This document shows positions 2,907 through 33,435 of a stretch of DNA of 34,713 nt, in pieces. Positions within the stretch are counted from its first letter, which is position 1, and every line of letters begins with the position of its first letter. A program made the translations under genes and the position numbers. Location: positions 1-34,713 of the forward strand of contig JAKPNJ010000247.1 of NCBI GenBank assembly GCA_029548445.1, in the 5' to 3' direction. The stretch comes from Bacillota bacterium. GTDB taxonomy: Bacteria > Bacillota > Clostridia > Saccharofermentanales > UBA5734. The notes beneath the pieces were generated by a model. The model was not told where the DNA came from. It saw only the letters and a list, made by a program, of their open reading frames with translations, and searched no databases.

Positions 2907-3005
2907 TGGGTTATATGTAGACTTATCTTATATGCGATGTTATATTCTTCTTATCTGCTTACAGCATCCGCTCGCCGTATCGGTCGACCGAAAGGATGAT
3001 CCGCC

Positions 3006-7840: not shown

Positions 7841-7939
7841 GGGGCAGGACGCGCCGCCAATTGATTTGATCTTCAAAGCATTCTCCCGTATACTCAGGCC
7901 ATCGTGCCATGCGGCCCCTTGAAAGGGAGGTCTTCTTTC

Positions 7940-8497
7940 ATGAACGGTGACCTGCGCTTCCTGCTCGTTTTCGGCCTGCCGGTCCTGGCTGCCCTGGCCG
8001 GCGGCCTGCTCTTCACCCGGGCCAAGCCCCGCCTCCTCCGGGGGATCGGCCTGGCCGCGGCGCTCCTCGCACTCGTCATCCCGGCGCTGATGTATGCCGT
8101 CGGTGTCGGTACGCTCCTGGCCGACAACGGGGGCGGGTTCGCTGACCTGGTCGTCGCCCTGGCGGCCCTGTTGCTGTCGGTCCTGATCAGCATCTCGCTG
8201 CTGCCCCCCGTCTCCGTCCTGCTGCCGCCCCGGAAGGCCTGGATCGTCCCCGGCGCCCTGAACCTCCTCCTGATCGTGGCCACCCACCTGCTGACCCAGG
8301 GAAACCGGCCCCTCGGGGAGCAGACCTGGACCGGCGTCCTCTCGCTCCTGGGCCTGTCCCTCGTGTCCCTGGTCGTGGCCTGGTGCGCCTACTTCTGGCG
8401 GAATCCCCGGTACCGGCCGGTTCCGGCAGCAGTCTCGGAGACGGCCTCCGAAGCGGAACAGGCGAAGGACGCGCCGGCCGGGCCGCCAGCGGAGTAG
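7940..8497 (+). CDS. Hypothetical integral membrane protein (about 5 TM), Pro/Ala-rich acidic C-terminal tail
   Basis: Start MNGDLRFLLVFGLPVLAALAGG is preceded by the RBS AGGGAGG and an AT-rich promoter island (TTGATC-N17-TATACT at about 7868-7896). Hydrophobic helices throughout; no recognisable family. Confidence 0.55.
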   Translation: MNGDLRFLLVFGLPVLAALAGGLLFTRAKPRLLRGIGLAAALLALVIPALMYAVGVGTLLADNGGGFADLVVALAALLLSVLISISLLPPVSVLLPPRKAWIVPGALNLLLIVATHLLTQGNRPLGEQTWTGVLSLLGLSLVSLVVAWCAYFWRNPRYRPVPAAVSETASEAEQAKDAPAGPPAE

Positions 8498-9935: not shown

Positions 9936-10823
9936 TCACGCCAGCCAGAGCAATCCCAGGGCCATGGTTACCCCGTTGGCCAGGATCGTATAGGCCAGGG
10001 GTTTGGGCCATTTCCGCTCCGCCATCCAGAAGAAGTAGGCCAGGAACTCCACCAGGATCACCAGGGTTTCCAGGGCGGCAAAGGCCACGAGGTAGTTCCA
10101 CTGGAAAGGCCCGGACACCAGGGCCACCAGCAGGACGTGGAGGAGGCCCTGGGTCGCCAGGTTGACGGGAATCGGCAGCCAGCGGCGCTTCGGAAACCGG
10201 AAGGGCAGGACCAGGAGGCATTCCACCAGGACCGTCAGGAACACCCGGCCCAGCAGCTTGAGCCACCACCAGAAACTCCCGGTGTTGGTCAGCACCGACA
10301 GGGTGTTCGCCCCCAGGTCATAGACCACCAGGGCGTCGAATTGGGTCGTCGTGATCGTGTCGGATACCCGGAGGGTCCCGGTGGCCCGGTCCTGGACGAG
10401 GACGGCGAAGGTGTCGGGGACGGCCATATAGGTAAACCTGTGCTCGATGGCGCCATCCGGCCGAAGGCTGCCGGACAGGTCGCCCCAGATGGCATACCCG
10501 TGGCAGAGCAGCCCGACCCGCCCTCCCTCCCGGTACTGGTAAATCGGGTACTCCCGGATCTCGGGATGCTCCTCTTCCAGCCAGCCGGTCTCGCCGGGTT
10601 CGGCGATGAAGGAACCATCTTCCGGGACCAGCAGGTCCAGGTAATAGTCATTCGGCGAGTCGGTGCCGATAACGCGGACGGTCAGCGAGGGTTTGGGACC
10701 CGCATCGGCCCGAACCGGCCCGGCCAGGCCGGACATGGCGGACCACAGGAGGAATCCAGCCAGGAAAGCGGCAGGCAACGCCAAGCGGCGACCGGATCCG
10801 GAGATGCGTTTCTGTGCGAACAT
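9936..10823 (-). CDS. Membrane protein of unknown function: signal peptide, extracytoplasmic N-terminal domain (~160 aa), then four TM helices
   Basis: Start MFAQKRISGSGRRLALPAAFLAGFLLWSAMSGLAGPVRA (RBS GGAAGGAG). The C-terminal third is strongly hydrophobic (FWWWLKLLGRVFLTVLVECLLVLPF..., LAYTILANGVTMALGLLWLA). It is the last gene of the glycosidase/isomerase operon. Confidence 0.6.
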   Translation of the reverse strand: MFAQKRISGSGRRLALPAAFLAGFLLWSAMSGLAGPVRADAGPKPSLTVRVIGTDSPNDYYLDLLVPEDGSFIAEPGETGWLEEEHPEIREYPIYQYREGGRVGLLCHGYAIWGDLSGSLRPDGAIEHRFTYMAVPDTFAVLVQDRATGTLRVSDTITTTQFDALVVYDLGANTLSVLTNTGSFWWWLKLLGRVFLTVLVECLLVLPFRFPKRRWLPIPVNLATQGLLHVLLVALVSGPFQWNYLVAFAALETLVILVEFLAYFFWMAERKWPKPLAYTILANGVTMALGLLWLA

Positions 10824-10897
10824 GGGATGGTCACTCCTTCCGATCCGTTCCGGTTCGGTCCGGAACCTGTCGGCACAGCGGGAGATCCGATCCCATT

Positions 10898-12907
10898 CTA
10901 CTCCTGCGGGGAAGCGGGGGACAAGGGAAGGCGGGGAAGCCGCCAGGCCTGCAGGAGGGCGTCGACGCTGTATCCGGTTTCCCAGGGGCGATGCTTGTTG
11001 CACCAGGAGAGGCTTCGTCCGTTTTCGTAGTATTCATTCCAGGATCCCGTCACATCCCGGAGGGACAGGACCCGGGATTCGGCCTCCGCGATCTCTTCCC
11101 GGGTTCCGCCGGAGGAAACCAGGGTGTACAGAAGCAGGGCGGGATCATAGCCGACCGTCCGGTTCTCAGGCCGAAAATCAGCCAGGAACCTTCTGGCCAG
11201 GGAGAGGGTTTCTGCCGGGGCCAGGAGATCGCTGCCCAGGTAGGCCGGCAACAGGCTGACCGACGGGATCTCCACCGGGCCCGGCGCCGGTGGTCCCTGG
11301 TATCCCGCCCCGTTTCGGCACCAGGGGCAGAGGTAGTGCCCGCCGCCATCGGTCTCCAGCCACCCGAAATGGATCTGGCCGAGGCTGGATCCCTGCTCGC
11401 AGACGCCGAACTTGAACCGGGGCCTGTCCCGGAGAGCGGCCTCCCGCTCCGGGGCGTTGGCCACGAGCCTGCCGTTTCGCAGGAAATGCGTCCGATATCC
11501 GGACCGGACCCGGGATGCGGCGCAGGCCACTTCCCGGAGACGGTCGAGGGTCCCGTTCCGGCGAGCCCACCCGCACAGCCATTCGGCGGCCAGGAGGAAC
11601 AGGAGCGTCGCCTCGGCCGCGCCATGGAGTAGCGCCGACCGGGGCAGAAGAAAGCCCGCCACATAGGTTTCGTCGCCATTGAACGGGAGCATGTCCTCCA
11701 CCAGGTGCGGCAGCTGGACCCGAAGACACCACTCCAGCATGGGCAGGATCGTCCGGATGTGGGTGTCGTCGCCGGTGGCGCGCCAGTAATCCCTTGCGGC
11801 CAGCACGAGATAGGAGGTCTGCTCGACATGGTCGTTCTCGGCGGGATGCCGGGGTTCGTCCCGTCCCATGGCCTCGGCGTTGACCAGGTCGCCGAATCGC
11901 TGGAACTTGCCGAAACGGAATTCCAGGATCGACCGGGCCGCCTCCGGATAGCCCATCGCCAGCAGCCCCCGGACTGCACCGTAGTTGTCCCTGGAATAGC
12001 CCACCGGCAGGAAATGGGCCGATGGAAGCCCGCCCTCCAGCGATTGCTGGCAGCGGATCAGGAGCAGGGCTTCCTCCAGCAGGTCCCGTCTCCATTGATC
12101 CGCTTCTCCCGGAACGAGGCCCAGGCGTTCCGGGTCCAGGCGTCCGGTGAATCGGCGCCATGAGTTGACCGCATCCCGCTCCAGGTCCTCCGGCCGCAGG
12201 GGCGACAGGAATTCCACCGCCTCGACGGCGCCGGCATGGGAGAGATCCGCCACAAAGGCCAGGTCCGCATCGCCTGGACCGATCCGGAAGACCAGGTCTC
12301 CCTCTCCCCCTTCCTGGTTCCTTCCCTCCAGGTTGACCGGCTCCACGGGCCCGTCGACTTGTCCCCGAATCCGCAGGAAGCCGTATGAACTCCGGGCGTC
12401 CGTGTGGAACAGGATGGCGTTGCCCGGCAGGACTTCGAACTGGATGAGGATCGTCCCCGGTTCCGGGTCCCTCCGGGCAGACCAGCACCGATGCCGGCCG
12501 GGAAAGCGGATCCGCTGCAGAATCGGGGTCTCCAGGTTCCGGTAGAGCCGAAGCAGGGCGGGCACATCCCGCGGGACCACATCCCGGATTTCCGGAACCC
12601 CTTCCGGGATCGGGCCGTCCGGCGGGCAAACAGGCGGGCCCTCGGCAGGCTCGTTCTCCTGGTTGATGGACAGGATGTGCCGCCGGATCGGGGTGCCGGG
12701 CACGCGGACGGTCCGGGTTTCCAGCCGGTGACCGGCGACGGGGGACAGCAGGATCCGGGCCAGGGACGTGGATGTATAGGGGCGATAGATGTCGGCGATG
12801 TCCGGTCCATGGCTGTACGCCAGGAGTTGTCCGTTGCCCTGGGAGACAATATGCTCGTACAGCGGGTTTCCCGAAGGGTCCCAGCGCCACGGGACGATCC
12901 GGTTCAT
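10898..12907 (-). CDS. Six-hairpin (alpha/alpha)6 glycosidase-like protein with N-terminal beta-sandwich region (family unresolved; GH15/GH63/GH65-type architecture)
   Basis: 669 aa. The N-terminal ~250 aa are beta-rich; the remainder is helix-rich with acidic motifs (FNGDETYVAGF, DEPRHPAENDHVEQTSYLVLAARDYW). Clear paralog of the upstream 661-aa protein. Start overlaps the upstream stop (ATGA). Confidence 0.7.
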   Translation of the reverse strand: MNRIVPWRWDPSGNPLYEHIVSQGNGQLLAYSHGPDIADIYRPYTSTSLARILLSPVAGHRLETRTVRVPGTPIRRHILSINQENEPAEGPPVCPPDGPIPEGVPEIRDVVPRDVPALLRLYRNLETPILQRIRFPGRHRCWSARRDPEPGTILIQFEVLPGNAILFHTDARSSYGFLRIRGQVDGPVEPVNLEGRNQEGGEGDLVFRIGPGDADLAFVADLSHAGAVEAVEFLSPLRPEDLERDAVNSWRRFTGRLDPERLGLVPGEADQWRRDLLEEALLLIRCQQSLEGGLPSAHFLPVGYSRDNYGAVRGLLAMGYPEAARSILEFRFGKFQRFGDLVNAEAMGRDEPRHPAENDHVEQTSYLVLAARDYWRATGDDTHIRTILPMLEWCLRVQLPHLVEDMLPFNGDETYVAGFLLPRSALLHGAAEATLLFLLAAEWLCGWARRNGTLDRLREVACAASRVRSGYRTHFLRNGRLVANAPEREAALRDRPRFKFGVCEQGSSLGQIHFGWLETDGGGHYLCPWCRNGAGYQGPPAPGPVEIPSVSLLPAYLGSDLLAPAETLSLARRFLADFRPENRTVGYDPALLLYTLVSSGGTREEIAEAESRVLSLRDVTGSWNEYYENGRSLSWCNKHRPWETGYSVDALLQAWRLPRLPLSPASPQE

Positions 12908-14889
12908 GGCCGGGCTCCCCCGGCGGCTCTCCGGCCCCGGGCCGACAGGTACCGGACCAGGGCTTCCAGGTTGATGCCCGTGCTGAAGATGTTCAGGTTG
13001 TGGGAGTTTTCGACGCCGTGGGGGCCGTAGAATTCGGAGTAGGTCCCCGAGGCGCCCATGAGCCCGCCGTCGACCAGGGTCCGGAATACGGCCTCTGTCT
13101 CCTCCTCCGGGCGGTCCATCTCCACCAGGTCATACAGCAGGTACCCCAGGGTATGACCCGGAAATCCCTCGTTGACCCCGGGACAAACCGGGAGGAACCC
13201 GGTGTCGGGCCGGAGATCCGCCATCGCCGACAGGGCATCGGTTCGCTCTCCCCCTTCCGGAAACGCCGCCCCGAGCCACAGGGGCATCAGGCGATGGGGC
13301 AAAATCGGAAAGGGAGACGGGGTCCCGTCGGGATGAAGAGTCGTATGGCGGCATCCGCTTGCGCGATCGAGGAAATGGCGGTCCACCTGGTCCCGGATCC
13401 AGTCCGCGGCGTCCCGGTACCCCTGCGCCTCCCCCTCCCGCCCGGTCCGGGCCAGGTACTCCGTCAGGAACCGGGCCGAGGCCAGGGCGCCGGCGACGGC
13501 GGCCAGGGAGAAGTTCCGCAGGTCCCAGTCCGGCAGGCTCCCGTACATCCGACCGTCCACCGACGGCACATACCGCTCGGTCTCGTCCCCATGGAACCGG
13601 AGACGGCCGTCATGCCGAAGCGCCACATCCAGCTGGGCGTCCACCGCCCGGCGGAGGGATTCCTCCACCTGTTTCAGCAAGGACAGGTCGCCGGTCCTCT
13701 CCAGGTATCGGCGAACCAGGAGGACATAGTAGGCCGTGCTCTCGGAGGCCAGGTTCTCCTCCGGCAGGCCCAGGTCCAGGAGGATGGCGTCATGCCCCGT
13801 CTCGGCCCCGTTTGGCACATGGCCGAACTTCCGGACCCGGCGGTCCACCCACAGGATGAAGTCCCGCAGTTCCTCCGTGTAGCCGCAGGCCGTCAGTCCC
13901 CGCAGTCCGCCGTGGCTGTCCCGCAGGTAGGAGAAGGAATACGCCTGGGGACAGGCCATGAACCCCCCGTCGAAGCAACGGCAGGACCGGATGGCCACCA
14001 GCATCCCCTCGATGGCCAGGTCCAGCCGGGGGTCGCCGGATGCCGGGGCCTGGGAGCGGGCCAGCCAGTCCCCCCATTCCTTCCGGGTCCGGGCCAGGAC
14101 GCCGTCGGGATCCCGGTAGGGATCCGGCATGGGGAGGGTCGGGGATTCGGAGTGCATGGCCGGCACACCGGCGAGATCCAGCTCGGCCCCGGTCCAGTGG
14201 ACCAGGCACAGGCTGGCATGGCAGCCGGGCTCCAGGCGGATCTCCCCGGTCCGCAGCACGAAGGCGCCGTCGGCCTCCCGGCGGGCGTCGAAGGGCCCGG
14301 AGAACCCGATCCGCACGGTCCTGGCCAGGGAGGAACGGGGGTTCTCGTGCTCGTTCCAGCCGAAGACCGGATCCTCGGGTCCGGCAGACAGGCGGAGGAA
14401 GCCGTCCGGCAGGATCTCGCCCCGGCCGTTCCGGGACACGATCCGGGCCTCCAGGCGGATCGTCACGGCGTCCCCGGATGCTTCCCCATCGCCGAAGGCC
14501 GCCGCCGTTTCGTCAGGCGTCAGGGACCCGCCGGTCCGGCGGGGGCCAACCGTGATCCAGCGAAGGATCCAGGGGGCGTTGCGGACCGTCGTGTCGACGA
14601 TTCGGACGGGCAGGTCCGCGATCCGGTCCTGTCCCAGGAGGCTGCCTGTGCCCTGGATCCGCAGCATGGGCATGCGAAGGGGAGCGGACACACCGTTCCG
14701 GACGAGAGCCAGGGTTTCGATCCGGAGAAAGTTGGGGGCGGTATAGCCGGGGCCGATAAGAAAATTCCAGTCACATCCGCCGTCCACGGTGCCGGCGCCC
14801 GCCACCTGGCTGCCGACGAACTGTTTCTCCAGCCGGCCCAGGGGGGTGCAGGCCGGAAGGAATGCCGGGTTGCCGCTGCGAATCGCCAT
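12904..14889 (-). CDS. Six-hairpin (alpha/alpha)6 glycosidase-like protein (paralog of the 10898..12907 gene)
   Basis: 661 aa from MAIRSGNPAF (RBS GGAGGAG). Motifs RFHGDETERYVP and NGAETGHDAILLDLGLPEENLASESTAYYVLLVRRYLERTGD parallel the downstream paralog. The ORF track extends it 59 codons upstream into the isomerase gene; that extension is rejected. Confidence 0.7.
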   Translation of the reverse strand: MAIRSGNPAFLPACTPLGRLEKQFVGSQVAGAGTVDGGCDWNFLIGPGYTAPNFLRIETLALVRNGVSAPLRMPMLRIQGTGSLLGQDRIADLPVRIVDTTVRNAPWILRWITVGPRRTGGSLTPDETAAAFGDGEASGDAVTIRLEARIVSRNGRGEILPDGFLRLSAGPEDPVFGWNEHENPRSSLARTVRIGFSGPFDARREADGAFVLRTGEIRLEPGCHASLCLVHWTGAELDLAGVPAMHSESPTLPMPDPYRDPDGVLARTRKEWGDWLARSQAPASGDPRLDLAIEGMLVAIRSCRCFDGGFMACPQAYSFSYLRDSHGGLRGLTACGYTEELRDFILWVDRRVRKFGHVPNGAETGHDAILLDLGLPEENLASESTAYYVLLVRRYLERTGDLSLLKQVEESLRRAVDAQLDVALRHDGRLRFHGDETERYVPSVDGRMYGSLPDWDLRNFSLAAVAGALASARFLTEYLARTGREGEAQGYRDAADWIRDQVDRHFLDRASGCRHTTLHPDGTPSPFPILPHRLMPLWLGAAFPEGGERTDALSAMADLRPDTGFLPVCPGVNEGFPGHTLGYLLYDLVEMDRPEEETEAVFRTLVDGGLMGASGTYSEFYGPHGVENSHNLNIFSTGINLEALVRYLSARGRRAAGGARP

Positions 14890-14917
14890 GGGAGTCTCCT
14901 CCTGCTGCAGGACCGGG

Positions 14918-16348
14918 TCAGCGACCCAGGATCTCCACGTCCACGTCCAGCATCCGGCAGACGGCCGAGAGATCCTCGATCCAGTCGCCATAGACGGCGT
15001 GGCAGTGGTTCGCGTCAAACCGCTCCAGGAAGACCTGGGGGTCGAAGGGCAGTTTCGCGAAGACATGGGGCCACTCGGGCGTGGTCTCGGCCATTTTTTC
15101 CCGGGGCAGCTCCACGAACTCCGCCGGGATCAGGGTCATCCGGTACCGCCCGCAGGTCCGGTTCAACCGGGCGATGGTGGCGGTACCGGCCTTCGTCATG
15201 CAGTTGACATGGGCCCCGCCGCCGGAATAGATCTCCAGGCAGGGATAGAACGTCACCTGCCGAAGGTTTTCCGCCGGATCGTCCGACCGGCCGGCATACC
15301 AGGTGGACTCGGACCCGCAGTTGCAGAAGACCATGACGCCATATTCCCGGTCCACGTGGCGCACGTCCATGAATAGCACCGGGTCGTCGGTCAGCAGCCG
15401 GAGGATCTGCATGGTCAGGGCCCCATCGGAATCGGCCTCGCAGGAAAAGACCACCGGCTCCTTCGGGCCGTTCCAGTCGTAGGGATCGTTCATGAAGGCG
15501 GCGGACAGGCACTGGGTGCAGTGGTGGCGGCTCATCTCGTAGTGGCACTTGACGCCGACGAAGTCGAAGCGGCGCTCCGCGGCGATGCGCTTCGTCGCCT
15601 CGTAATGGCGGATCTGGGTCTTGAGTTTTTCCGGTGTGAGCCGTACCCCGTCGTACCGGATCGACCCCACATGGGATTCCAGCCACGCGAAGGCCCGTTC
15701 CACCGTCTCCGGATCCACCTCCCCGGCCAGCCGGACGATTTCCGACTGGTCCAGGTGCTCGATGTCCACGCCGAACTTGTCCTGCCAGTCCTGCATGGAG
15801 ACCGTGGCACTGTACATGCCCAGGCTCCGGCCCCCGATGAGGCCGTAGGTGGATCCCCGGAGCCGGCTTGCCACCCGGGCGCACCGGGCGAAGGACAGCA
15901 CCTTCTCCAGGACCTCGGGCTCCCGGATGTCCCCGGCGACCCGGAAGTGGTCGATCCCCAGGTGGTGGAGGGCGCCGCCGCTGGCCAGCATGGCCACCAT
16001 CCCGGGCCAGTCGGGATTCAGGTTGGCCGCCAGGAGGAAGGGGCCCTTCCCATTCTTCGCCGCGATGGCGGAAAAATTCGGAAAGCTGAAGACGCCGTAC
16101 GAGAAAATGGTCCCGTCCACATCCCGGGCCACCATCTTCAGGGATTCCTCCCGGGCCGTCTCCGGCGAGCAGACCAGTCGGTCGCCCACCACGACCTCGA
16201 CCTTTCCCGACTCCCGCAGGGCGTCGGCGATGGCCGAGAGTTGGGCCGAGACGATGTCCTTCAGCTGCTCATGGACCTCCGGCTCGCCGTCGGAGAAGCC
16301 GAGAATGCCGATCCGGGGCTTGCCCGTCGTCCTGGATGTTCCGTTCAT
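14918..16348 (-). CDS. L-fucose isomerase / L-arabinose isomerase family (FucI-like) aldose-ketose isomerase, about 476 aa
   Basis: From MNGTSRTTGKPRIGILGFSDGEP (RBS GGAGG) it has FucI-family features: N-terminal GILGFSDG, central GVKCHYEMS...CTQCLSAAFMNDPYDWNG...VVFSCEADSDGALTMQILRLL. The 168-codon upstream extension in the ORF track is GC-rich garbage. The ATG overlaps the dhaL stop (ATGA). Confidence 0.8.
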   Translation of the reverse strand: MNGTSRTTGKPRIGILGFSDGEPEVHEQLKDIVSAQLSAIADALRESGKVEVVVGDRLVCSPETAREESLKMVARDVDGTIFSYGVFSFPNFSAIAAKNGKGPFLLAANLNPDWPGMVAMLASGGALHHLGIDHFRVAGDIREPEVLEKVLSFARCARVASRLRGSTYGLIGGRSLGMYSATVSMQDWQDKFGVDIEHLDQSEIVRLAGEVDPETVERAFAWLESHVGSIRYDGVRLTPEKLKTQIRHYEATKRIAAERRFDFVGVKCHYEMSRHHCTQCLSAAFMNDPYDWNGPKEPVVFSCEADSDGALTMQILRLLTDDPVLFMDVRHVDREYGVMVFCNCGSESTWYAGRSDDPAENLRQVTFYPCLEIYSGGGAHVNCMTKAGTATIARLNRTCGRYRMTLIPAEFVELPREKMAETTPEWPHVFAKLPFDPQVFLERFDANHCHAVYGDWIEDLSAVCRMLDVDVEILGR

Positions 16349-17001
16349 GCGCGATCCTCCTTCATCAGGTCCCGGATTCCGTCGGTCATGGCCCGCAGCA
16401 GCAGGTCGCAGGAGGCGGCTCCCGCGTCGGGGAACCCGCGGCTCCGTTCCCCCAGCCGGCTGGCCCGGCCGACCCGGGCCACCATGTCCCGGGTGGATTC
16501 GAATCCTGCAGCGGACGCGGCGTCCAGGGCCTCGAGAGCGTCCCCGAAGGGTTCCCCCCGGTCCAGGGCGCCGGCCAGGGCCGACACCGCCGGAACCAGC
16601 ACGTCCAGCAGGGTCTTGTCCCCCGGCTCGGCACCGCCCACCGCCCGGATTTTGGCCAGGCCGGCCTGCAGCATCCCGAGGAATGCCGGCCCGTCGACCC
16701 GGTCCAGTCCCCTGGCGGCTTTCGCCATCTCCAGGAAGAAGGACCCGTAGAGCGGTCCCATGGAGCCGCCGATTTCCATCAGGAGCACCCGGCCCAGGGT
16801 CCGGAGGCTCTCTTCCAGCCCCCTGGGCTCCCCGGCCAGCCGCTCGGCGCACAGGCCGAAGCCCTTGGCCATGTTGATGCCATGGTCCCCGTCACCGATG
16901 GCCCCGTCGATGGCGCTGAGTCGATCCCGGTTCTCGCGGATCGCCCGGATCATCCGGTCCACCAGGAGGCCGCCATCCCGGGCCGGGAATCCCGCCGCCA
17001 C
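16345..17001 (-). CDS. dhaL: Dihydroxyacetone kinase family, ADP-binding subunit L (DhaL)
   Basis: DGAIGDGDHGINMAKGF motif and DhaL four-helix fold length (218 aa). Confidence 0.9.
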   Translation of the reverse strand: MAAGFPARDGGLLVDRMIRAIRENRDRLSAIDGAIGDGDHGINMAKGFGLCAERLAGEPRGLEESLRTLGRVLLMEIGGSMGPLYGSFFLEMAKAARGLDRVDGPAFLGMLQAGLAKIRAVGGAEPGDKTLLDVLVPAVSALAGALDRGEPFGDALEALDAASAAGFESTRDMVARVGRASRLGERSRGFPDAGAASCDLLLRAMTDGIRDLMKEDRA

Positions 17002-17004
17002 GGG

Positions 17005-18033
17005 TCAGCCCTCCCCGGCGCCGGGGGAGCCCCGGCGGAACTGGCGGAGGCCCACACTCTCGGCCTCGTCGTCCAGCAGGTCCGCCAGCGTGTCGTCCAG
17101 CTTCAGGAGGGTCAGGGTGACGCCCATCATCTCCAGGGACGTAAAGTAATTTCCTACGTAGGAGCGGTGGAGGGAGATCCCGGCCCCGTCCAGCCGCTCC
17201 GCCACCCGCCGGAACAGGATGTAGAGTTCCATGATCGGCGTGGCACCCAGGCCCGAGACCAGGACGGCGACCCGGTCTCCCGCCCGGAAATCCCCGTCGG
17301 GCAGGAGGAGGTCCAGCATGGCATCGGCCATGGCATCGGCGGAGGCCAGGGGTTCCACCCGGATGCCCGGCTCCCCGTGGTGCCCGATGCCCACTTCCAT
17401 GGTCCCGGATTCGATGGTGAAGTTCGGCCTGCCCACCGCCGGGATCGTGCAGGGCGTCAGGCCGATGCCCACGCTGCGGGTCCGGTCCACGGTTTGCTGG
17501 GCGACGGCGGCCACTTCCTCCAGGGAGGCCCCCCGGGCGGCCAGGGCGCCGGCCACCTTCCACATCAGCACTTCCCCGGCGACCCCCCGCCGCCTGGAGC
17601 GCTGGTCCGGCGGCGCCGAGGCCGCATCGTCGTCGGCCACCACAGCCAGGACCCGGATCCCGTCCTCCTCGGCCATGTCCCTTGCCATCCGGACATTCAT
17701 GTTGTCCCCGGCATAGTTCCCGTACAGGCAGACGACGCCCTGTCCGGAATCGGCCACCCGGATCGCATCGTAGAACGCCTGGGCGGTCGGGGACGAGAAG
17801 ATCTCTCCCACCGCCACGGCATCCACCAGGTTCCGGCCGAGATAGCCGATGAACGCCGGCTTGTGCCCCGAACCGCCCCCGGTTACAATCCCCACCTTGC
17901 CCGGCACGGGAACCCCCCGGGCCTTCAGCACCCGGGGATTCGACGTGGGCTCCACCAGGTCCGGATGGGCCCTGACAAACCCCGCGAGCATCTCCTCCAC
18001 CACCCGGTCCGGATCATTGACAATCCGCTGCAT
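17005..18033 (-). CDS. dhaK: Dihydroxyacetone kinase family, substrate-binding subunit K (DhaK)
   Basis: MQRIVNDPDRVVEEMLAGFVRAHPDL parallels E. coli DhaK MKKLINDVQDVLDEQLAGL. GKVGIVTGGGSGHKPAFIGYLG carries the substrate-binding His. RBS GGGGGAG. Long upstream extension in the ORF track rejected. Confidence 0.9.
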   Translation of the reverse strand: MQRIVNDPDRVVEEMLAGFVRAHPDLVEPTSNPRVLKARGVPVPGKVGIVTGGGSGHKPAFIGYLGRNLVDAVAVGEIFSSPTAQAFYDAIRVADSGQGVVCLYGNYAGDNMNVRMARDMAEEDGIRVLAVVADDDAASAPPDQRSRRRGVAGEVLMWKVAGALAARGASLEEVAAVAQQTVDRTRSVGIGLTPCTIPAVGRPNFTIESGTMEVGIGHHGEPGIRVEPLASADAMADAMLDLLLPDGDFRAGDRVAVLVSGLGATPIMELYILFRRVAERLDGAGISLHRSYVGNYFTSLEMMGVTLTLLKLDDTLADLLDDEAESVGLRQFRRGSPGAGEG

Positions 18034-18586
18034 TCGACTCTCCCCCGCCTTCGCGGCTCTCGCGGCCCTCTCGGCTCTTGCGGTCTTCCCGGCCTTCCCG
18101 TCCGTCCGCCGCCCTTCTTCCCGAATCCGCCGGTTCCCCGGACCATCGGGACGCCTCGTAGGCCCGGATCCGTTCCACCTTGGGCAGGGATCCCCCGCCC
18201 TCGAATTCCGACTCGAGCCAGGTAGCCACCAGGGTCCTGGCCAGTTCCTCGCCCACCACCCGGGCGCCCAGCGCCATGACCTGGGCGTCGTTGCTCTTCC
18301 GGGCCCGCTGGGCCGAGTACGGATCGTGGCACACCGCCGCCCGGACCCCCGGGACCTTGTTGGCTGCAATGGCCATGCCGATCCCCGTCCCGCAAACCAG
18401 GATCCCCCGGGCATGCCGGCCGGCAGCAATGCCCTCGGCCACGGCGATGGCGATGTCGGGATAGAGGACCGGCCTCGTATCGTGGACGCCGTAGTCCTCG
18501 ACATCAAAACCCCGGTCCTGCAGAAATGACTTCAGGCGCTCCTTCAGGGCGAATCCCGCTTCGTCGCTGCCGATGGCGATGGTCAA
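18014..18586 (-). CDS. RpiB/LacAB-family sugar-phosphate isomerase with a charged low-complexity C-terminal tail
   Basis: A TTG start gives (M)TIAIGSDEAGFALKERLK..., matching the canonical RpiB N-terminus MKIAIGSDHAGF. It is preceded by AGGGGAGGAAAGgcc. ILVCGTGIGMAIAANK is the RpiB active-site loop. The tail REGREDRKSREGRESREGGGES overlaps the dhaK start by 20 nt. Confidence 0.8.
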   Translation of the reverse strand: MTIAIGSDEAGFALKERLKSFLQDRGFDVEDYGVHDTRPVLYPDIAIAVAEGIAAGRHARGILVCGTGIGMAIAANKVPGVRAAVCHDPYSAQRARKSNDAQVMALGARVVGEELARTLVATWLESEFEGGGSLPKVERIRAYEASRWSGEPADSGRRAADGREGREDRKSREGRESREGGGESNAADCQ

Positions 18587-18639
18587 GGCCTTTCCTCCCC
18601 TGGGTCCGGGCTGGCGGGTCCGGATGGACACATGGCTTT

Positions 18640-18700
18640 CTTGGTGCGCAGTATTTCATATATGAATTATAGTTATCTTATATGATTTGATTGTATGCCT
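18640..18700 (-). promoter_or_regulatory. AT-rich promoter/operator island upstream of the rpiB-dhaKL-isomerase operon; contains the perfect palindrome TTCATATATGAA and the 12-mer TTATCTTATATG
   Basis: About 35% GC against a ~70% background. The 12-bp palindrome ttcatatatgaa sits at about 18654-18665. A minus-strand TATAAT lies in the island. The island is between the rpiB operon and the IclR gene. Confidence 0.5.
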
Positions 18701-18803
18701 CCAGCCCGGTTCCGTCAAGACAGGAACAGGGCCCCCGGCGGGGGCCCTGCGGTGTGGCGGCGGAAGGGAACGGAAGGAACGGCGGGAGACCGCCGGCCCG
18801 GCC

Positions 18804-19613
18804 TCAGTCCCGGGCGCCCAGGCGGGCCGACAGGTCCCGGGCGGCCTCGCGGACCAGTCCGGCCAGTTCGGCGAACCGCCGGGGATCCAGGTATTCCTCC
18901 ACGTGGCCCGTAATGCCCAGGGCGGCGGTCACGACGCCCGCATGATCGAACACCGGCGCAGCCAGGCACCCGATCCCGATGGCGAATTCCTCGATGTCCA
19001 CGGCGTACCCGTCCAGGCGGACCCGGTCCAGCTGTTCCAGGAAGGCGTCCCGGTCCTGGAGGCTCCGGGCGGTACGCTTCTCCAGGGTGGCGGCCTGGAC
19101 ATACTCGCGACGCTCGGTGTCCGACAGGAAGGCCAGCAGGACCTTGGCGGAGGCGCTGAGGTTGACGGGGATCACGGTTCGGAGGGGAGCGATGATGCTG
19201 ACGGGCCGGAGGGGCAGGACCTGGTCCACATACAGGACGCCGTCCCGCTGGAGGAGACCCAGTTGGGCGGTCTGGCCGCAGCGGGCCGAGAGCGTCTTCA
19301 GGACGGGCCGGGCGACCTCGACGGGGTCCAGCTGCCGGACCAGGTGGCGGGAGAGGGTCAGGAGGCGAAACCCCAGGCCGAAGCGCGACTGGGTTCCGGG
19401 GTATTCCTTGAGGTACTCCCGGGCGGTCAGCTGGCGGACGATCCGGAAGGCCGAAGCCGGGGGAATGTCCAGGGCCTTGGAGAGTTCCTTCAGGGTGGCA
19501 GGCCCCTCGAGGTCGCCCAGGAACTCCAGGATGTCCAGGACCCGCTCCAGGGCGGGCACGGCCGGGGGACGGGACGGGGATGCGCCGGCTTCCCGGTTGG
19601 TTCGATTCGCCAC
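18804..19613 (-). CDS. IclR-family transcriptional regulator
   Basis: N-terminal wHTH (LERVLDILEFLGDLEGPATLKELSKALDIPPASAFRIVRQL) plus a C-terminal IclR effector domain. GTG start (VANRT) with a strong RBS AAAGGGAGGG and a 6-nt spacer; the ORF-track ATG start would overlap the NusG paralog. Confidence 0.85.
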   Translation of the reverse strand: MANRTNREAGASPSRPPAVPALERVLDILEFLGDLEGPATLKELSKALDIPPASAFRIVRQLTAREYLKEYPGTQSRFGLGFRLLTLSRHLVRQLDPVEVARPVLKTLSARCGQTAQLGLLQRDGVLYVDQVLPLRPVSIIAPLRTVIPVNLSASAKVLLAFLSDTERREYVQAATLEKRTARSLQDRDAFLEQLDRVRLDGYAVDIEEFAIGIGCLAAPVFDHAGVVTAALGITGHVEEYLDPRRFAELAGLVREAARDLSARLGARD

Positions 19614-19632
19614 GGAATACCCTCCCTTTCGC

Positions 19633-20271
19633 CTAGTCGGGATCATCGACGAATTCGGCGGCGATGTCGATGACATGGACCGCTTCCTCCAGCGAAATCC
19701 GGATCCGGACCCGGTGCTTCCGGCGGTTCACCCCGACGATCACGCCCTCCAGGCCCACCAGGGGTCCCGACGCCACCTTGACGGTCTGGCCTTCGCAATG
19801 GACCCGGGAGAAGGTGATCAGGTCCCCGCCCCGGGTCAGGCGCAAAATGATCTCCATCTCCCGGGCCGGCACCGGGGTTGGCAGGCGTCCGGCCCCGGAG
19901 GCCCGCTGGCCCAGGATCTTCAGGACATGGGCCAGGGACCGGATCCGGAAATACAGGACCTCGTCCATGACCGTCCGGACGAAAAGGTAGCCCGGCAATA
20001 ACGGGCGCCGGACCGTCCGCTCCCGGCCCATGCACCGCTCGATCATCTCCCGGATCGGCAGCAGGACCTGCAGGCCGGGATCCAGGTAGGACAGCTGCCG
20101 GCGGACGCTTTCCTCCGAGCCGGTCCGCACGAACAGCGCAAACCACTGCGCGTCCCGCGGCGGTTCCGTCGTCGGCCGCTCCACATTCCGGGTCGTTCCT
20201 GCGTCGTCCACCGGCTGCCCCTCTCCGAAATCGTCGCCTCCCATTCTATTCGTTTCCCGGGAAGCCCGCAA
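19633..20271 (-). CDS. Specialised NusG paralog (NGN + KOW domains; LoaP/UpxY/RfaH-like processive antiterminator)
   Basis: NGN domain: WFALFVRTGSEESVRRQL...LLPIREMIERCMGRERTVRRPLLPGYLFVRTVMDE...RIRSLAHVLKILG. KOW domain: GQTVKVASGPLVGLEGVIVGVNRRKHRVRIRISL. Start uncertain (ATG at 20271 or 20244, or a GTG after GGAGAGGGG). Confidence 0.8.
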   Translation of the reverse strand: MRASRETNRMGGDDFGEGQPVDDAGTTRNVERPTTEPPRDAQWFALFVRTGSEESVRRQLSYLDPGLQVLLPIREMIERCMGRERTVRRPLLPGYLFVRTVMDEVLYFRIRSLAHVLKILGQRASGAGRLPTPVPAREMEIILRLTRGGDLITFSRVHCEGQTVKVASGPLVGLEGVIVGVNRRKHRVRIRISLEEAVHVIDIAAEFVDDPD

Positions 20272-20332: not shown

Positions 20333-21028
20333 TCAGCCCTGGCCGTAGGTGGCGGTCCGGCCGTGCTTCCGCAGGTAGTGCCGATCCAGGAGGAAGCTGT
20401 CGATGGGCTGCTTGTCCGGCCGCAGCAGGCGGGTGTGGAACGCCATCCTGGCGCACTCCTCCAGGATGACCGCGTGGTGGACCGCCTCCACGGCGTCCCG
20501 GCCCCAGGCGAAGGGCCCGTGGTCGGCCACCAGGACCGCCGGGATCGCGTCCGCCGTCAGTCCCCGCTCCTGGAAAGTCTCGATGATCACGGCGCCGGTG
20601 TTGGCCTCGTATTCGCCCTCGATCTCCTCCCGGGTCATGTTTCGGGTGCAGGGCACGGAGCCGTAGAACGTATCCGCGTGGGTCGTGCCGTAGGCCGGCA
20701 GGTCGAGGCCGGCCTGGGCGAAGATCGTGGCCCAGTGGGAATGGGTGTGGACGATGCCGCCGATGCCGGGAAAGGCCTTGTACAGCGCCAGGTGGGTCGC
20801 CGTGTCCGTGCTGGGCCGGTAGGTGCCGGACACCACCCGCCCGTCCAGGTCCACCACCACGATGTGCCGTTCCTCCATGCCCTCGTAGGGCACGCCGCTG
20901 GGCTTGATGGCCACGAGCCCCTTCTCCCGGTCGATGGAGCTGACGTTCCCCCAGGTAAAGGTCACCAGGCCGTACTCGGGCAGCAGGAGATTGGCCTCCA
21001 GGGTCTTGCGGATGATGGGCTGGATCAT
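20333..21028 (-). CDS. araD: L-ribulose-5-phosphate 4-epimerase
   Basis: Near-colinear with E. coli AraD: [79 protein letters not shown]. Start overlaps the araB stop (ATGA). Confidence 0.95.
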
Positions 21029-22713
21029 GTCACGCCTCCTTCCCGCGCCTGCCGGCGGATCTCCTTCAGGCGCTTCATGACGTCGTTCTCCCCCCGGCCG
21101 AAGTAGTCGTGGAGAATCCGGTACTCGGCGTACAGGCGGTCATAGACCTCGGCATGGGCCGGATTCGGCCGGTAGACCAGGTCCTTCAGCCGGGGCATGA
21201 CCCTGGCCGCCTCGAAGATGGAGTTGTACCCGCCCCGGGCCTTCCCCGCCGCCACGGCCCCGAACATGGCGGAGCCCAGGGCCACGGTCTGGTCGCTGGC
21301 GGAAATGCGGAACTCCCGGCGGGTCACGTCGGCGTAGATCTGCATCATCATGGGGTCCTTGGAGGCGATGCCGCCGCAGGCCAGGATCTCCCGGACCGGG
21401 ACGCCGTTGGCCTCGAAGGTCTCGATGATCATGCGGGTCCCGTAGGCGGTGGCCTCGATGAGGGCCCGGTAAATCTCCTCCGGCCGGGTGGCCAGGGTCA
21501 GGCCCACCATCATGCCGGTCAGGTCCACGTCCACCAGCACCGACCGGTTGCCGTTCCACCAGTCCAGGGCCAGGAGGCCGCTTTCGCCGGGCTTCTGGAC
21601 CGAGGCCTTCTCCCGGAGCAGGGCGTGGATGCCCAGTCCCCGCGCCTCGGCTTCCTTCCGATAGGATTCGGGCACGCAGGTGCGCACGAACCAGTCGAAG
21701 TGGTCGCCCACGCAGGACTGGCCGGCCTCGTATCCCAGGTACCCGGGCAGGATGCCGTCTTCCACGACGCCGCACATCCCCGGCACGTTGTGCTCCTCGG
21801 TGCCCAGGATCATGTGGCACGTGGACGTGCCCATGATCATCAGCATCCGGCCCTCTTCGGCGATCCCCACAGCCGGGACCGCCACATGGGCGTCCACATT
21901 GCCCACCGCCACCGCAGTGCCGGGCAGCAGGCCGGTCAGCTCCGCCCCCCGGGCGTTGATCTCCCCGGCCTTCTCCCCGATGGGACGAATGTTCCGGGAG
22001 AGCTTCTCGTCCACCACATGCTCCAGGGCCGGGTCCAGGGCCTTGAAAAATTCGTTGGAGGGGTAGCCGTCGCGCTTGTGCCACATGGCCTTGTAGCCGG
22101 CGGTGCAGCTGTTCCGGGCCTCGACGCCGGTCAGGAGGAGGACGATCCAGTCCGTGGCCTCCAGGAAGCGGTCGGCGGCTGTGTAAATGTGGGGCGCTTC
22201 GTCCAGGACCTGCCAGATCTTCGGGAAGAGCCATTCGGAGGAGATCTTCCCGCCGTACCGGGCCAGGAAGGCCTCGCCCCGCCGGGCCGCCACGGCGTTC
22301 AGCCGGTTGGCTTCGTCCTGGGCCGCATGGTGCTTCCATTTCTTCACATAGGCATGGGGCTCCTTCCGGAATTCCGGCAGGAAGCACAGTGGCGTTCCTT
22401 CCGCGTCGATGGGCAGGCAGGTGCAGGCGGTAAAGTCGATGCCCACCCCGATCACATCCTCCGGCGACACCCCGGCCTCCTTCAGGACCGCGGGCACCGT
22501 GTCCCGGAGCACCTCGATGTAGTCTTCCGGATCCTGGATCGTCCAGTCATGGGGCAGCCGCTGCCCCGATGCCGGCAGGACGTCCTCGATGAATCCGTGG
22601 GTGTAGTTGCGGACCGCCGTGGCCACTTCCCGGCCCGTGTCCACCTCCACCAGCAGCGCCCTGCCCGACAGGGACCCGAAATCGATGCCCAGCGAATACT
22701 TCCTGTTGCCCAT
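21025..22713 (-). CDS. araB: Ribulokinase (FGGY family)
   Basis: [24 protein letters not shown] is the FGGY N-terminus typical of AraB; the length (562 aa) and C-terminal motifs are consistent. RBS AAGGAGGAACGGAC-ATG. The 18-codon upstream extension in the ORF track is rejected. Confidence 0.93.
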
Positions 22714-22794
22714 GTCCGTTCCTCCTTGCGTGTGCCGTTTCCCGGCCGTTTCCGAACTTCCCTGCATCCCGATTCCTGGTCCCGGTTCGCCCTG

Positions 22795-24027
22795 TTACCC
22801 CGGCGGCGGGCCGGTGCTCCGGCCGGGGATCAGCCGGGCCGGCATCACGAGTTCCCTCGGAGAGGCCGACGGGTCCCGCAGCCGCTCCAGCAGCAGTTCC
22901 ACCGCCCGGACGCCCAGCCGCCTCCGGGGATGGGTCACGGTGGTCAGGCCTCCCAGCCCGCCGTCCCGGTCCGCTCCCGCCGTTCCGGATGCCCCTGCAA
23001 CCCCCGGCCCAGGGCCGTACCAGGCAGACAGCCGGGCCAAGTCGGACCCGTCGAACCCGGTCAGGGAGAGATCCTCCGGAATTCGGACGCCCTTGCGTCC
23101 CATGGCCTCCGCCAGGCGGACCCCAACCTGGTCGTTGTAGCAGCAAAGCGCCGTGGGCCGACGATCGGGCGGACAGGCCAGCCAGCGGTCAGCCGTCCGG
23201 TCCGCCAGGGCGTCGGGGTCCCGCAGGTCCCCGGCGTCGAACCAGAGGAGCAGCCCGGCGTCGTCTTCCCCTGCCGAAAGGCCCAGGTCGGCGATGGCCC
23301 GCCGGAATCCCTCCCGGCGCCGGCATCCCTGGATGTCGTCTTGCTTGAACAGGCCGCCGATCCGCCGATGGCCCAGGCCATGGAGATGCCGGACCAGCCG
23401 GTCCATGCCGCCCTCGTCGTCCGGCCGGACGCAGGAGGCGGCGACGTCGGGCAGGTCGCCGTGGATGAACACCACCGGCATCCGCTCCGCCAGGTGGGCG
23501 ATGGCGGACCGATTGCCCCCGGGAAGGGCGCTGCGGGCGGGCTCCAGGACCAGGCCGTCCATGCCCTGTTCCTGGAGGGTCTGCAGGCAGCGGGCCTCCC
23601 GGGAAGTCGAGTTGCCCGAGGAGGCCATGACCAGGCCCAGGCCGGCCTGCTGCAGCCGTCCGTCGATGCCCTGGAGGATGTCGGTAAAAATATAGTGGTC
23701 GAGGTGGGAAATCAGGACGCCGATCCGGCCGGTGGACCGGGACGGGGCGGCCGCTCCGCCTTTGGATCCGCGGGTCCGGGCAGGGGTCCGGACATAGGTG
23801 CCGCTGCCCCGGGTTCGCTCCAGCAGGCCGTCGTGGGTCAGGTCCGACAGGGCCTGGCGGGCGGTGTTGCGGCTGATCCCGAACCGGGCGGCCAGGTCGT
23901 TTTCGGAGGGAGCCCGGTCCCCCGGGCGGAGGCGGCCTTCCCGGACCAGCCCCCGGATCCATTCCCGGACCTGGACATACTTGGGCTGTCCGTTGGCGGT
24001 GGTCGGCTCCTGTCCGGTTCGGTCCAT
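22795..24027 (-). CDS. araR: AraR-type arabinose repressor (GntR-family N-terminal HTH fused to LacI/GalR-type periplasmic-binding-like effector domain)
   Basis: GntR HTH YVQVREWIRGLVREGRLRPGDRAPSENDLAARFGISRNTARQALSDLTHDGLLERTRGSGTYV is followed by a LacI-type sugar-binding domain. This is the same chimeric architecture as Bacillus AraR. Start at MDRTGQEP. Confidence 0.85.
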   Translation of the reverse strand: MDRTGQEPTTANGQPKYVQVREWIRGLVREGRLRPGDRAPSENDLAARFGISRNTARQALSDLTHDGLLERTRGSGTYVRTPARTRGSKGGAAAPSRSTGRIGVLISHLDHYIFTDILQGIDGRLQQAGLGLVMASSGNSTSREARCLQTLQEQGMDGLVLEPARSALPGGNRSAIAHLAERMPVVFIHGDLPDVAASCVRPDDEGGMDRLVRHLHGLGHRRIGGLFKQDDIQGCRRREGFRRAIADLGLSAGEDDAGLLLWFDAGDLRDPDALADRTADRWLACPPDRRPTALCCYNDQVGVRLAEAMGRKGVRIPEDLSLTGFDGSDLARLSAWYGPGPGVAGASGTAGADRDGGLGGLTTVTHPRRRLGVRAVELLLERLRDPSASPRELVMPARLIPGRSTGPPPG

Positions 24028-24055
24028 GGCCCCTCCCCCGGCGTCGCACTCGGGA

Positions 24056-24071
24056 AGTTGTTCATACAACT
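24056..24071 (-). promoter_or_regulatory. AraR-box-like 16-bp palindrome AGTTGTtcatACAACT upstream of araR (likely autoregulatory operator)
   Basis: Perfect 6-bp arms AGTTGT/ACAACT. The half-sites TTGTtc/atACAA match 10 of 12 positions of the Bacillus AraR operator core TTGTAC/GTACAA. Located about 30-45 nt upstream of the araR ATG. Confidence 0.5.
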
Positions 24072-24120
24072 GCCCTGATTTTACCAAGGCGGCGCCCCAG
24101 GGGCAAGGGGACGGCGTCCA

Positions 24121-28673: not shown

Positions 28674-28721
28674 GTCGGACCCTCCTCGAAGAATCGTTAT
28701 GATAGGATGGTATCACAGTTA

Positions 28722-28750
28722 TTTACAGCCCGGATTCCCTTTGGTAGATA
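28722..28750 (+). promoter_or_regulatory. Putative sigma-70 promoter TTTACA-N17-TAGATA for the Gfo/Idh/MocA gene pair, preceded by inverted repeat TGATAggatggTATCA
   Basis: tttaca at 28722-28727, a 17-nt spacer, tagata at 28745-28750. An AT-rich island with a TGATA/TATCA inverted repeat lies at about 28699-28716, in the araC-divergent region. Confidence 0.45.
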
Positions 28751-28834
28751 TGAGGAAGGAACCCACCCTGCAGGCAGAGCCGGGAAGCGAAGGCGCGGAA
28801 CCCCGGCCCGCCCATCCGTCAAGGAGGAACAGCC

Positions 28835-29926: not shown

Positions 29927-29942
29927 GGAACCAGCGAAGCGC

Positions 29943-33360: not shown

Positions 33361-33435
33361 CGGGCGTCCTCCTTCCGGACGGCCCCCATGCGCCGTCCCT
33401 GGAACTCGGCCCCATTGTATCGTACCCGGTGGGAC

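Follow-up and report, generated by a model that had tools for sequence, protein, structure and literature searches.

The window analyzed here, a 34,713-nucleotide (nt) stretch of a Bacillota bacterium (contig JAKPNJ010000247.1, assembly GCA_029548445.1), carries on its minus strand seven closely spaced genes that a preliminary description had read as a non-canonical set forming a single catabolic pathway. Comparison of gene neighborhoods across 80 genomes leads us to a different view. The functional unit is very probably four enzymes, namely a FucI-like isomerase, the two kinase subunits DhaK and DhaL and an RpiB-like protein, together with an IclR-family regulator encoded beside them. We infer that this core is a widespread, horizontally shuffled catabolic module through which a free short aldose would enter the pentose-phosphate pathway. 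For the chemistry we propose the series aldotetrose, D-erythrulose, D-erythrulose 4-phosphate (Eu4P), erythrose 4-phosphate (E4P); drawn for the substrate and for every step from family chemistry and gene context, it stands in our judgment at an even chance of being right.

Gene map and conservation of the module

The gene run was delineated by third-position GC analysis and the listing of open reading frames (ORFs) in a window of ~67% G+C, and the resulting map matches the genes called independently on metagenome contigs that are identical to it or nearly so (JGI 3300009715, JGI 3300010344, ENA ERZ795058). In the direction of transcription, beginning with the regulator, the genes are as follows.

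18804-19676, minus: IclR-family regulator (Pfam HTH_IclR and IclR_C)
18014-18586, minus: rpiB-like gene, RpiB/LacAB-family isomerase with a "DerI-type" signature (Pfam LacAB_rpiB); TTG start at 18586, with a GGAGG Shine-Dalgarno sequence before it
17005-18033, minus: dhaK, substrate-binding kinase subunit (Dak1; Pfam Dak1); ATG at 18033
16345-17001, minus: dhaL, nucleotide-binding kinase subunit (Dak2; Pfam Dak2)
14918-16348, minus: short FucI-like aldose-ketose isomerase, 476 amino acids (aa) (Fucose_iso_N1/N2/C)
12904-14889, minus: glycoside hydrolase (GH)-like A, 661 aa, divergent paralogue of GH-like B; predicted cytoplasmic, lineage-specific
10898-12907, minus: GH-like B, 669 aa, modeled as beta-sandwich plus (alpha/alpha)6 barrel; unclassified family, strain-variable
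9936-10823, minus: membrane protein, 295 aa, modeled with signal/anchor helix, beta-sandwich ectodomain and four transmembrane (TM) helices

All seven minus-strand ORFs of the preliminary description thus exist, and Pfam and NCBIfam uphold its assignments to the RpiB/LacAB, Dak1, Dak2 and FucI families. Its statement that the genes overlap or lie less than 30 bp apart throughout holds for most junctions (a 20-nt overlap between rpiB-like and dhaK, a 3-nt gap between dhaK and dhaL, ATGA overlaps at dhaL/isomerase and at GH-like A/GH-like B, and 28 nt between the isomerase and GH-like A genes) but fails at the last one, where GH-like B and the membrane protein gene are 74 nt apart and the latter has its own Shine-Dalgarno sequence. 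Likewise, the span it gave to the unit takes in the core genes and leaves out the IclR gene of the conserved module; the adjoining IclR, LoaP and araR-araB-araD genes had all been overlooked.

To define what is conserved, one genome per species was scanned, yielding 80 loci with an isomerase 64-78% identical to the window protein, and neighbors were counted by tblastn with the window proteins at a coverage of at least 50% in 10-kb flanks. DhaL was found at 53 of the 80 isomerase loci, DhaK at 52 (47-70% identity), the RpiB-like protein at 43 and IclR at 34, whereas GH-like B was found at one and neither GH-like A nor the membrane protein at any. In a stricter subset of 47 loci (isomerase identity of at least 67%, full flanks, neighbors within 7 kb), the counts were 37 for DhaK, 36 for DhaL, 28 for the RpiB-like protein and 24 for IclR. 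The order of the genes varies, with strand and adjacency preserved, and the IclR homologue is often divergent and directly upstream of the isomerase. Orthologues of the isomerase at 64-79% identity, and the module with them, span at least six phyla (Bacillota, Acidobacteriota, Spirochaetota, Planctomycetota, Chloroflexota, Actinomycetota and Pseudomonadota); the nearest relatives of the window isomerase are in Bacillota metagenome-assembled genomes.

These co-occurrence counts, the loss of GH-like B from a 96%-identical strain and the unrelated genomic context of the membrane protein (both described below) identify IclR, isomerase, DhaK, DhaL and RpiB-like as the conserved entity, and they speak against a single pathway of seven genes. 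Several minimal loci (L023, L026, L032, L061 and L070) consist solely of IclR, a CUT2-type ATP-binding cassette (ABC) sugar transporter, the isomerase, DhaK, DhaL and the RpiB-like protein. Therefore, three enzymes should suffice to link an imported sugar to central metabolism.

The enzymes and a proposed route to erythrose 4-phosphate

The RpiB-like protein passes the generic rpiB models (PF02502, LacAB_rpiB, 3.8e-54; TIGR01120, 163 bits versus a cut-off of 138.65). We aligned it with the RpiB proteins of Clostridium thermocellum (PDB 3he8) and Escherichia coli (PDB 2vvr) and with the 43 module orthologues. The catalytic Asp9, Cys66, Thr68 and Asn100 (E. coli numbering) are kept in the window protein and in all orthologues. 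The residues at E. coli positions His10, His99, Arg133, His134 and Arg137, however, are not conserved; in C. thermocellum numbering, the window protein has Glu for His9, Ser for His98, Gly for Arg132, Ser for His133 and Lys for Arg136. Forty of the 43 orthologues follow the same pattern, with Glu, Pro, Asn or Asp at position 9/10, Ser at 98/99, a non-basic residue at 132/133, Ser at 133/134 and Lys at 136/137. The three exceptions (L033, L049 and L052) are canonical RpiBs with the His/Arg/His/Arg set, located 5-6 kb from the module. The aligned 2vvr sequence has Asn where other canonical RpiBs have His, and we take this entry to be the H99N mutant.

In canonical RpiB, as seen in the E. coli and Mycobacterium tuberculosis structures, His residues open the furanose ring, and an Arg/His/Arg set binds the 5-phosphate. 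With these residues lost, a shorter, acyclic substrate is more likely than ribose 5-phosphate. A canonical RpiB function was rejected on the basis of these active-site substitutions.

The same signature recurs in other contexts. Annotated RpiB homologues were fetched from plasmids and grouped by gene context, and Ser98, Asn99 and Ser133, with Lys or Asn at 136, occur in all six RpiB-family references from erythrulose-phosphate contexts, which are the following.

Rhizobium etli and R. acidisoli: flanked by a LerI-type TIM, a four-carbon acid sugar kinase and OiaX (D-apiose oxidative cluster)
Klebsiella: TIM/Tal/Tkt cluster
Labrenzia: TIM/FBPase/FBA cluster
Salmonella plasmid pSA20021456.1 (L093) and a Pseudalkalibacillus plasmid (L100): alcohol dehydrogenase(s), MFS transporter, DhaK, DhaL, RpiB-like and transaldolase or GlpX

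The unrelated rpiB of Sinorhizobium meliloti pSymB does not carry the signature and keeps His98 and Arg136. In the D-apiose oxidative pathway, which Carter et al. reportedly described in 2018, the product L-erythrulose 1-phosphate is said to be processed by LerI and DerI. The window protein is thus a predicted D-erythrulose-4-phosphate isomerase. The residue losses and the signature shared with erythrulose-phosphate contexts support the earlier suggestion that DhaK/DhaL paired with an RpiB-family enzyme points to a tetrulose (erythrulose) phosphate rather than to dihydroxyacetone. As a separate observation, the window protein ends in a charged, low-complexity tail of ~40 aa (…GREGREDRKSREGRESREGGGE…; 18014-18140, minus) whose coding sequence overlaps the start of dhaK; orthologues elsewhere are 145-169 aa long and appear to lack the tail.

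The kinase is encoded as Dak1 and Dak2 domains on two separate polypeptides (DhaK, PF02733, 2.8e-112; DhaL, PF02734, 1.3e-50, and TIGR02365, 168.8 bits versus a cut-off of 138.3). The translations contain the motifs GGGSGH, NYAGD, HHGEPG and DGDHG, which we take to correspond to catalytic residues. DhaK falls under the dihydroxyacetone-specific equivalog cut-offs (TIGR02363, 362.8 versus 406.25; PRK14479, 433 versus 492), and the best NCBIfam match of the kinase is the fused Dak family PRK14479. As the preliminary description had noted, there is no dhaM in the window: tblastn with three DhaM sequences (the E. coli query was validated against PDB DhaM entries) gave no match at E ≤ 0.01, either in the window itself or across related loci totaling ~1.5 Mb, the best HMM match had an E of 0.5, and no DhaM was found beside 52 related dhaKL pairs. 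Because no DhaM was found with the module at any locus searched, the phosphoryl donor is probably ATP. On the Salmonella plasmid, DhaK, DhaL and the RpiB-like protein are 63, 49 and 61% identical to those of the window, and polyol dehydrogenases replace the isomerase; therefore, the same kinase and RpiB-like pair is combined there with polyol dehydrogenases instead of a FucI-like enzyme. The Salmonella and Pseudalkalibacillus plasmid clusters look like tetritol-type catabolic islands, in which the isomerase is annotated as plain rpiB.

The third enzyme scores above the cut-offs of all three FucI Pfam domains (Fucose_iso_N1, 111.6 bits; N2, 43.3; C, 131.1). In alignment with E. coli FucI (PDB 1fui), its E304, D328 and H448 match E337, D361 and H528, the Mn ligands and catalytic residues, and in the family profile they are invariant in 23 family members. 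The protein is thus predicted to be a catalytically intact aldose-ketose isomerase. As far as its sequence tells, it is not a FucI orthologue: it scores 79.4 against 775 bits with the FucI equivalog and has 476 rather than ~590 aa. By family profile the closest solved relative is a D-arabinose isomerase (PDB 3a9r, E 2e-29). Its partners are DhaKL and the RpiB-like protein, and fucK/fucA-type partners are not the rule.

Taken together, we propose that the Mn-dependent FucI-family isomerase would convert an aldotetrose of the D-threose or D-erythrose type to D-erythrulose, that DhaK/DhaL would phosphorylate this to Eu4P, probably with ATP, and that the RpiB-like protein would isomerize Eu4P to E4P. 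D-threose has the same C2-C3 configuration as L-fucose and D-arabinose; D-erythrose is the alternative substrate. The free aldose could be imported or released by aldolases encoded next to the module.

Several observations weigh against this route. The RpiB-like protein reaches 154.5 bits, over a full-length alignment, with the NCBIfam D-erythrulose-4-phosphate isomerase equivalog NF051858, below its cut-off of 240 (the model was built on rhizobial sequences), and the "DerI-type" reference proteins owe their own assignment here to gene context. The RpiB-like gene is absent from about a fifth of the DhaK-bearing loci. In comparison with PDB sequences, DhaK and DhaL are nearer the phosphotransferase system (PTS)-dependent subunits of E. 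coli than the ATP-dependent Dak of Citrobacter freundii, which makes a DhaM encoded elsewhere in the genome conceivable. Free tetroses are rare as nutrients, so a tetrose taken up through an ABC transporter is a less than obvious substrate in ecological terms. Finally, araB and araD lie next to the module without an araA, so that in this genome the isomerase might conceivably serve the use of L-arabinose.

Half of the proposed route has precedent. PMC5992420 and PMC10733421, citing Barbier 2014 and Huang 2015, present a Dak-type erythrulose kinase and an RpiB-family Eu4P isomerase leading to E4P as established in Mycobacterium smegmatis (DerK and DerI of the D-threitol/erythritol module), Brucella (EryI) and Yarrowia (EYK1 and EYI2). 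In those systems the ketose comes from a polyol through a dehydrogenase, whereas here it would come from an aldose through a FucI-family isomerase; moreover, the present kinase is split into DhaK and DhaL, regulation is of the IclR type, there is no LerI/EryH (TIM-type) or EryC partner, and the NCBIfam DerI cut-off is missed. The two-subunit Dak1 and Dak2 arrangement is that of E. coli and Lactococcus DhaKLM, the closest solved structures by sequence, from which the module differs in having no DhaM, in having sugar isomerases instead of glycerol genes and in missing the dhaK1 equivalog cut-off. The isomerase shares the three FucI Pfam domains and the E337/D361/H528 set with FucI (1fui, 3a9r) and with sulfoquinovose isomerase SftI, but is shorter than FucI and linked to DhaKL and the RpiB-like protein. 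A Listeria pentose-phosphate/glycerol cluster (rpiB, tpi, dhaKLM, tkt, tal), reportedly described by Monniot et al. in 2012, is said to place dhaK and dhaL beside an rpiB-family gene and pentose-phosphate enzymes; that cluster reportedly has DhaM and a glycerol dehydrogenase and no FucI-like isomerase.

A literature search found no paper describing a FucI-like, DhaKL and RpiB module. The kinase and RpiB-family half is of a known kind, and what sets the module apart is entry through an isomerase, a kinase that is split and lacks DhaM, and a broad distribution; the route of the module to E4P is apparently undescribed. The fullest form of the proposal is also the more doubtful one, and we offer it tentatively: a phylum-spanning, IclR-controlled route to E4P for free aldotetroses, or for tetroses freed by aldolases from heptuloses or deoxy-heptonates, made of a "tetrose isomerase" from the FucI family, an erythrulose kinase of two subunits that does not depend on DhaM, and an RpiB of the DerI type, and coupled in this lineage to members of a new, unclassified (alpha/alpha)6 glycosidase family.

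If the proposed route is correct, it would give a function to a conserved isomerase family now annotated only as "L-fucose/L-arabinose isomerase family," and many "rpiB" and "dhaK/dhaL" annotations would be mis-specified. The signature (Ser for His99 and loss of Arg133/His134/Arg137) separates RpiB homologues of the erythrulose-phosphate type from true ribose-5-phosphate isomerases. Candidate modules are present in cultured gut anaerobes, including Clostridium leptum DSM 753, Extibacter muris DSM 28560, Diplocloster (D. agilis), Zongyangia (Z. hominis) and Bariatricus.

The glycosidase-like and membrane proteins

In this lineage, two cytoplasmic proteins of GH15/GH65-like fold and a membrane protein would have been appended downstream of the core. 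GH-like A and B are paralogues (27% identity, E 4e-16), and neither has a sequence match in Pfam, NCBIfam or the PDB. For GH-like B, more than 160 homologues were found across diverse phyla, every one of them annotated "hypothetical"; GH-like A has three, two of them beside GH78 rhamnosidase genes. A confident AlphaFold model built from a 57-sequence alignment (pLDDT 90.8, pTM 0.92) predicts an N-terminal beta-sandwich (~20-221) and an (alpha/alpha)6 barrel (~224-655) resembling GH15 and GH65. The family profile has only one match in the PDB, a marginal one to GH15 (1lf6, E 0.019), and among the 57 homologues only weak matches occur, to GDE_C (18/57), Trehalase (6/57) and GH15 (6/57). D307, E362, D412, E413 and E625 are invariant acidic residues in the alignment and are candidate catalytic residues. 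In the models, the proteins would share the beta-sandwich and (alpha/alpha)6 barrel with clan GH-L (GH15 glucoamylase/glucodextranase, GH65) and with GH63/GH95, at 8-13% identity. Homologues adjoin GH78 rhamnosidases, a GH51 arabinofuranosidase, GH63-like enzymes, a sulfatase and sugar ABC transporters. No signal peptide was found in the translation of either protein. The earlier identification of two paralogous (alpha/alpha)6 glycosidase-like proteins is therefore supported at the level of fold and gene context.

GH-like B varies between strains: one 96%-identical strain, L007, has lost it precisely and keeps the rest. There, window position 12904 is joined to 10909 through a 28-nt filler (5871-5898 of L007, in place of window 10910-12903), around which only the ATG and the last codons of GH-like B remain.

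These data bear on the strongest of the alternatives to the four-enzyme unit, in which all seven genes would make up a dedicated glycoside pathway, the GH-like enzymes releasing an unusual sugar (for example the branched tetrose D-apiose from apiosides or rhamnogalacturonan II) that would then be isomerized, phosphorylated and isomerized again. The tight same-strand spacing, with the ATGA overlap of the GH genes and the 28-nt gap after the isomerase, suggests such a pathway, as do the modeled glycosidase fold and the presence of homologues in glycan-utilization loci (GH78, GH51, GH63-like, ABC sugar transporters). Nevertheless, we consider it unlikely. The GH-like genes occur at one of the 80 isomerase loci and the membrane protein at none, and a close strain dispenses with GH-like B while keeping the rest; the claim that the glycosidases release the sugar for the isomerase, kinase and RpiB-like protein accordingly loses its footing. 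Further, to our knowledge no natural tetrose glycoside exists besides apiosides, and apulose 4-phosphate would not be usefully processed by an RpiB-type isomerase. D-apiose was considered as the link to the glycosidases and set aside as speculation, because apulose 4-phosphate would leave the RpiB-type enzyme without a productive role. We thus infer that the GH-like proteins are accessory and need not feed the module.

The membrane protein is modeled (AlphaFold2, pLDDT 87.7) as a signal/anchor helix, a beta-sandwich ectodomain and four TM helices. Neither it nor its family matches Pfam, and the protein itself has no match in NCBIfam either. The family numbers 614 representatives at E ≤ 1e-3; the motif ADxGPKPS is conserved after the signal peptide, and the TM region has invariant polar residues (T197, E201, N221, E252, E259 and N283). 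Because it is absent from the 80 isomerase loci, follows a 74-nt gap with its own Shine-Dalgarno sequence and has an unrelated homologue context (the closest homologue adjoins a CCA-adding enzyme gene), the protein is probably not functionally tied to the module. The ectodomain has a weak Ig-like CBM26/CBM41 match. A likeness to pentameric ligand-gated channels, which also combine a beta-sandwich with four TM helices, was unsupported (Foldseek probability ~0.1, TM-score 0.17). This family (~600 representatives) and the GH15/GH65-fold family (>160 members) are two Pfam-less families that we flag for characterization.

Predicted upstream control, recurrent neighbors and the rest of the window

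Upstream of the rpiB-like gene lie the following features, in addition to the IclR gene.

18652-18718, minus: promoter-like site TTGACG-17-TACAAT (18718-18690), then AT-rich inverted repeats TCATATATGA / TCTTATATGA
18727-18749, minus: GC-rich terminator-like hairpin, located between the iclR stop and the promoter of the module; its 11-bp stem (inverted repeat I1) is 100% complementary
19633-20271, minus: LoaP-type NusG paralogue, between araD and iclR (NF033641, 140 bits versus a cut-off of 125)
20333-24120, minus: araR-type regulator, araB and araD, same strand and directly upstream

The hairpin has a predicted fold of -24.9 kcal/mol (z -2.5), and the hairpin, the promoter-like site and the AT-rich repeats are kept in two relatives (L006 and L007, 96-97% identical). 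This arrangement fits a separate transcription unit starting at the AT-rich island, where the preliminary description had placed it. Transcription would begin at the sigma-70-like promoter (18718-18690) under control of IclR, likely a repressor of the module, for which the adjacent AT-rich inverted repeats are the candidate operator. The LoaP gene overlaps the iclR start by 44 nt, and LoaP might conceivably let transcription of the ara genes read through into the module; in the other 80 genomes, the surroundings of the module yielded no LoaP homologue.

AraB (L-ribulokinase; TIGR01234, 795 bits versus 583) and AraD (L-ribulose-5-phosphate 4-epimerase; PRK08193, 362 bits versus 257) both exceed their cut-offs, the AraR-type regulator combines a GntR HTH with a LacI-type sugar-binding domain, and no Arabinose_Isome-type protein, that is, no canonical araA, was found among the ORFs scanned in the 34.7-kb window. 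The FucI-like enzyme could then be the missing L-arabinose isomerase, with L-arabinose freed by the GH-like enzymes (one family homologue adjoins a GH51 arabinofuranosidase) and with the RpiB-like protein and DhaKL as auxiliary pentose-phosphate and triose enzymes; one locus, L048, even has an AraD-like gene (53% identity) within the module. We think this improbable. Apart from L048, the 80 genomes have only remote paralogues of araB and araD (FGGY and aldolase proteins, 20-28% identical), so that the isomerase is unlinked to their orthologues, the hairpin and the separate promoter split the ara unit from the module, the RpiB-like protein is without the residues for ribose 5-phosphate, and DhaKL would be left without a role. 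As a general function of the isomerase, replacement of AraA was rejected, given that the enzyme does not co-occur with orthologues of araB and araD.

ORF clustering and Pfam identified the genes that recur around the module.

CUT2 ribose-type ABC transporter: 31 loci
FGGY kinases: 17 loci
Class II FBP-aldolase family: 15 loci
DHDPS family: 11 loci
Split transketolase: N-terminal part, 8 loci; C-terminal part, 7 loci
HpcH aldolase: 7 loci
TctABC: 7 loci
DUF386: 7 loci
Class II aldolase: 6 loci
Aldo-keto reductase: 6 loci

The neighboring aldolases and transketolase could generate free aldoses or consume E4P. In the PDB, the ABC binding protein that accompanies the module comes closest to generic binding proteins of the ribose type, with scores of no more than 95 bits. 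At six Spirochaetota loci (L025, L030, L065, L068, L074 and L075), the flanking genes encode TctCBA, HpcH aldolase, a DHDPS-family lyase, DUF386 (YhcH-like) and a GntR-FCD regulator. This set suggests that a 2-keto-3-deoxy or ulosonic acid is broken down there and that the resulting aldehyde enters the module. In a Lachnospiraceae subclade of the isomerase (L076-L087, 64-66% identity), the gene adjoins an amino-acid-kinase-family gene and dxr, or glgB and mscS; these neighbors are of the housekeeping type, and DhaKL and the RpiB-like protein were not found near the isomerase there.

Two further routes draw on these neighbors. In one, D-arabinose (or an L-fucose-type sugar) would be converted by the FucI-like enzyme to D-ribulose, by DhaKL to D-ribulose 5-phosphate and by RpiB to ribose 5-phosphate; the D-arabinose could come, for example, from Kdo-type ulosonic acids cut by the DHDPS/HpcH aldolases of the spirochaete loci. 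The closest solved relative of the isomerase (3a9r) is consistent with this route, as is the combination of TctABC, HpcH, DHDPS and DUF386 around the module at seven spirochaete loci, but the His and Arg/His/Arg residues for ribose 5-phosphate are gone from the RpiB-like protein, and no Dak-family ribulokinase is known, so we give the route little credence. Equally hard to credit is a triose salvage, in which glyceraldehyde released by aldolases would pass through dihydroxyacetone (isomerase) to DHAP (DhaKL) with the RpiB-like protein dispensable or serving another sugar phosphate: Dak enzymes classically act on dihydroxyacetone and D-glyceraldehyde, aldolase genes are common neighbors and the RpiB-like protein is missing from some DhaKL-bearing loci, but the salvage would explain neither the co-occurrence of a specialized RpiB subfamily (43/80) nor the minimal loci of transporter, isomerase, DhaKL and RpiB-like protein, and Dak enzymes phosphorylate D-glyceraldehyde directly anyway.

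Elsewhere in the window, a 210-aa ORF with a strong coding GC3 signal (7865-8497, plus) lies between FAA-hydrolase-family and acyl-CoA dehydrogenase genes and has no match in Pfam or NCBIfam. Three genes for GFO/IDH/MocA oxidoreductases (27771-30995 and 32200-33486), of which two adjoin an AraC-family regulator, probably represent another sugar or inositol-type catabolic unit. The other end of the window encodes two proteins of the transglutaminase-like type (1-2837) and a beta-helix protein of 864 aa (3000-5594).

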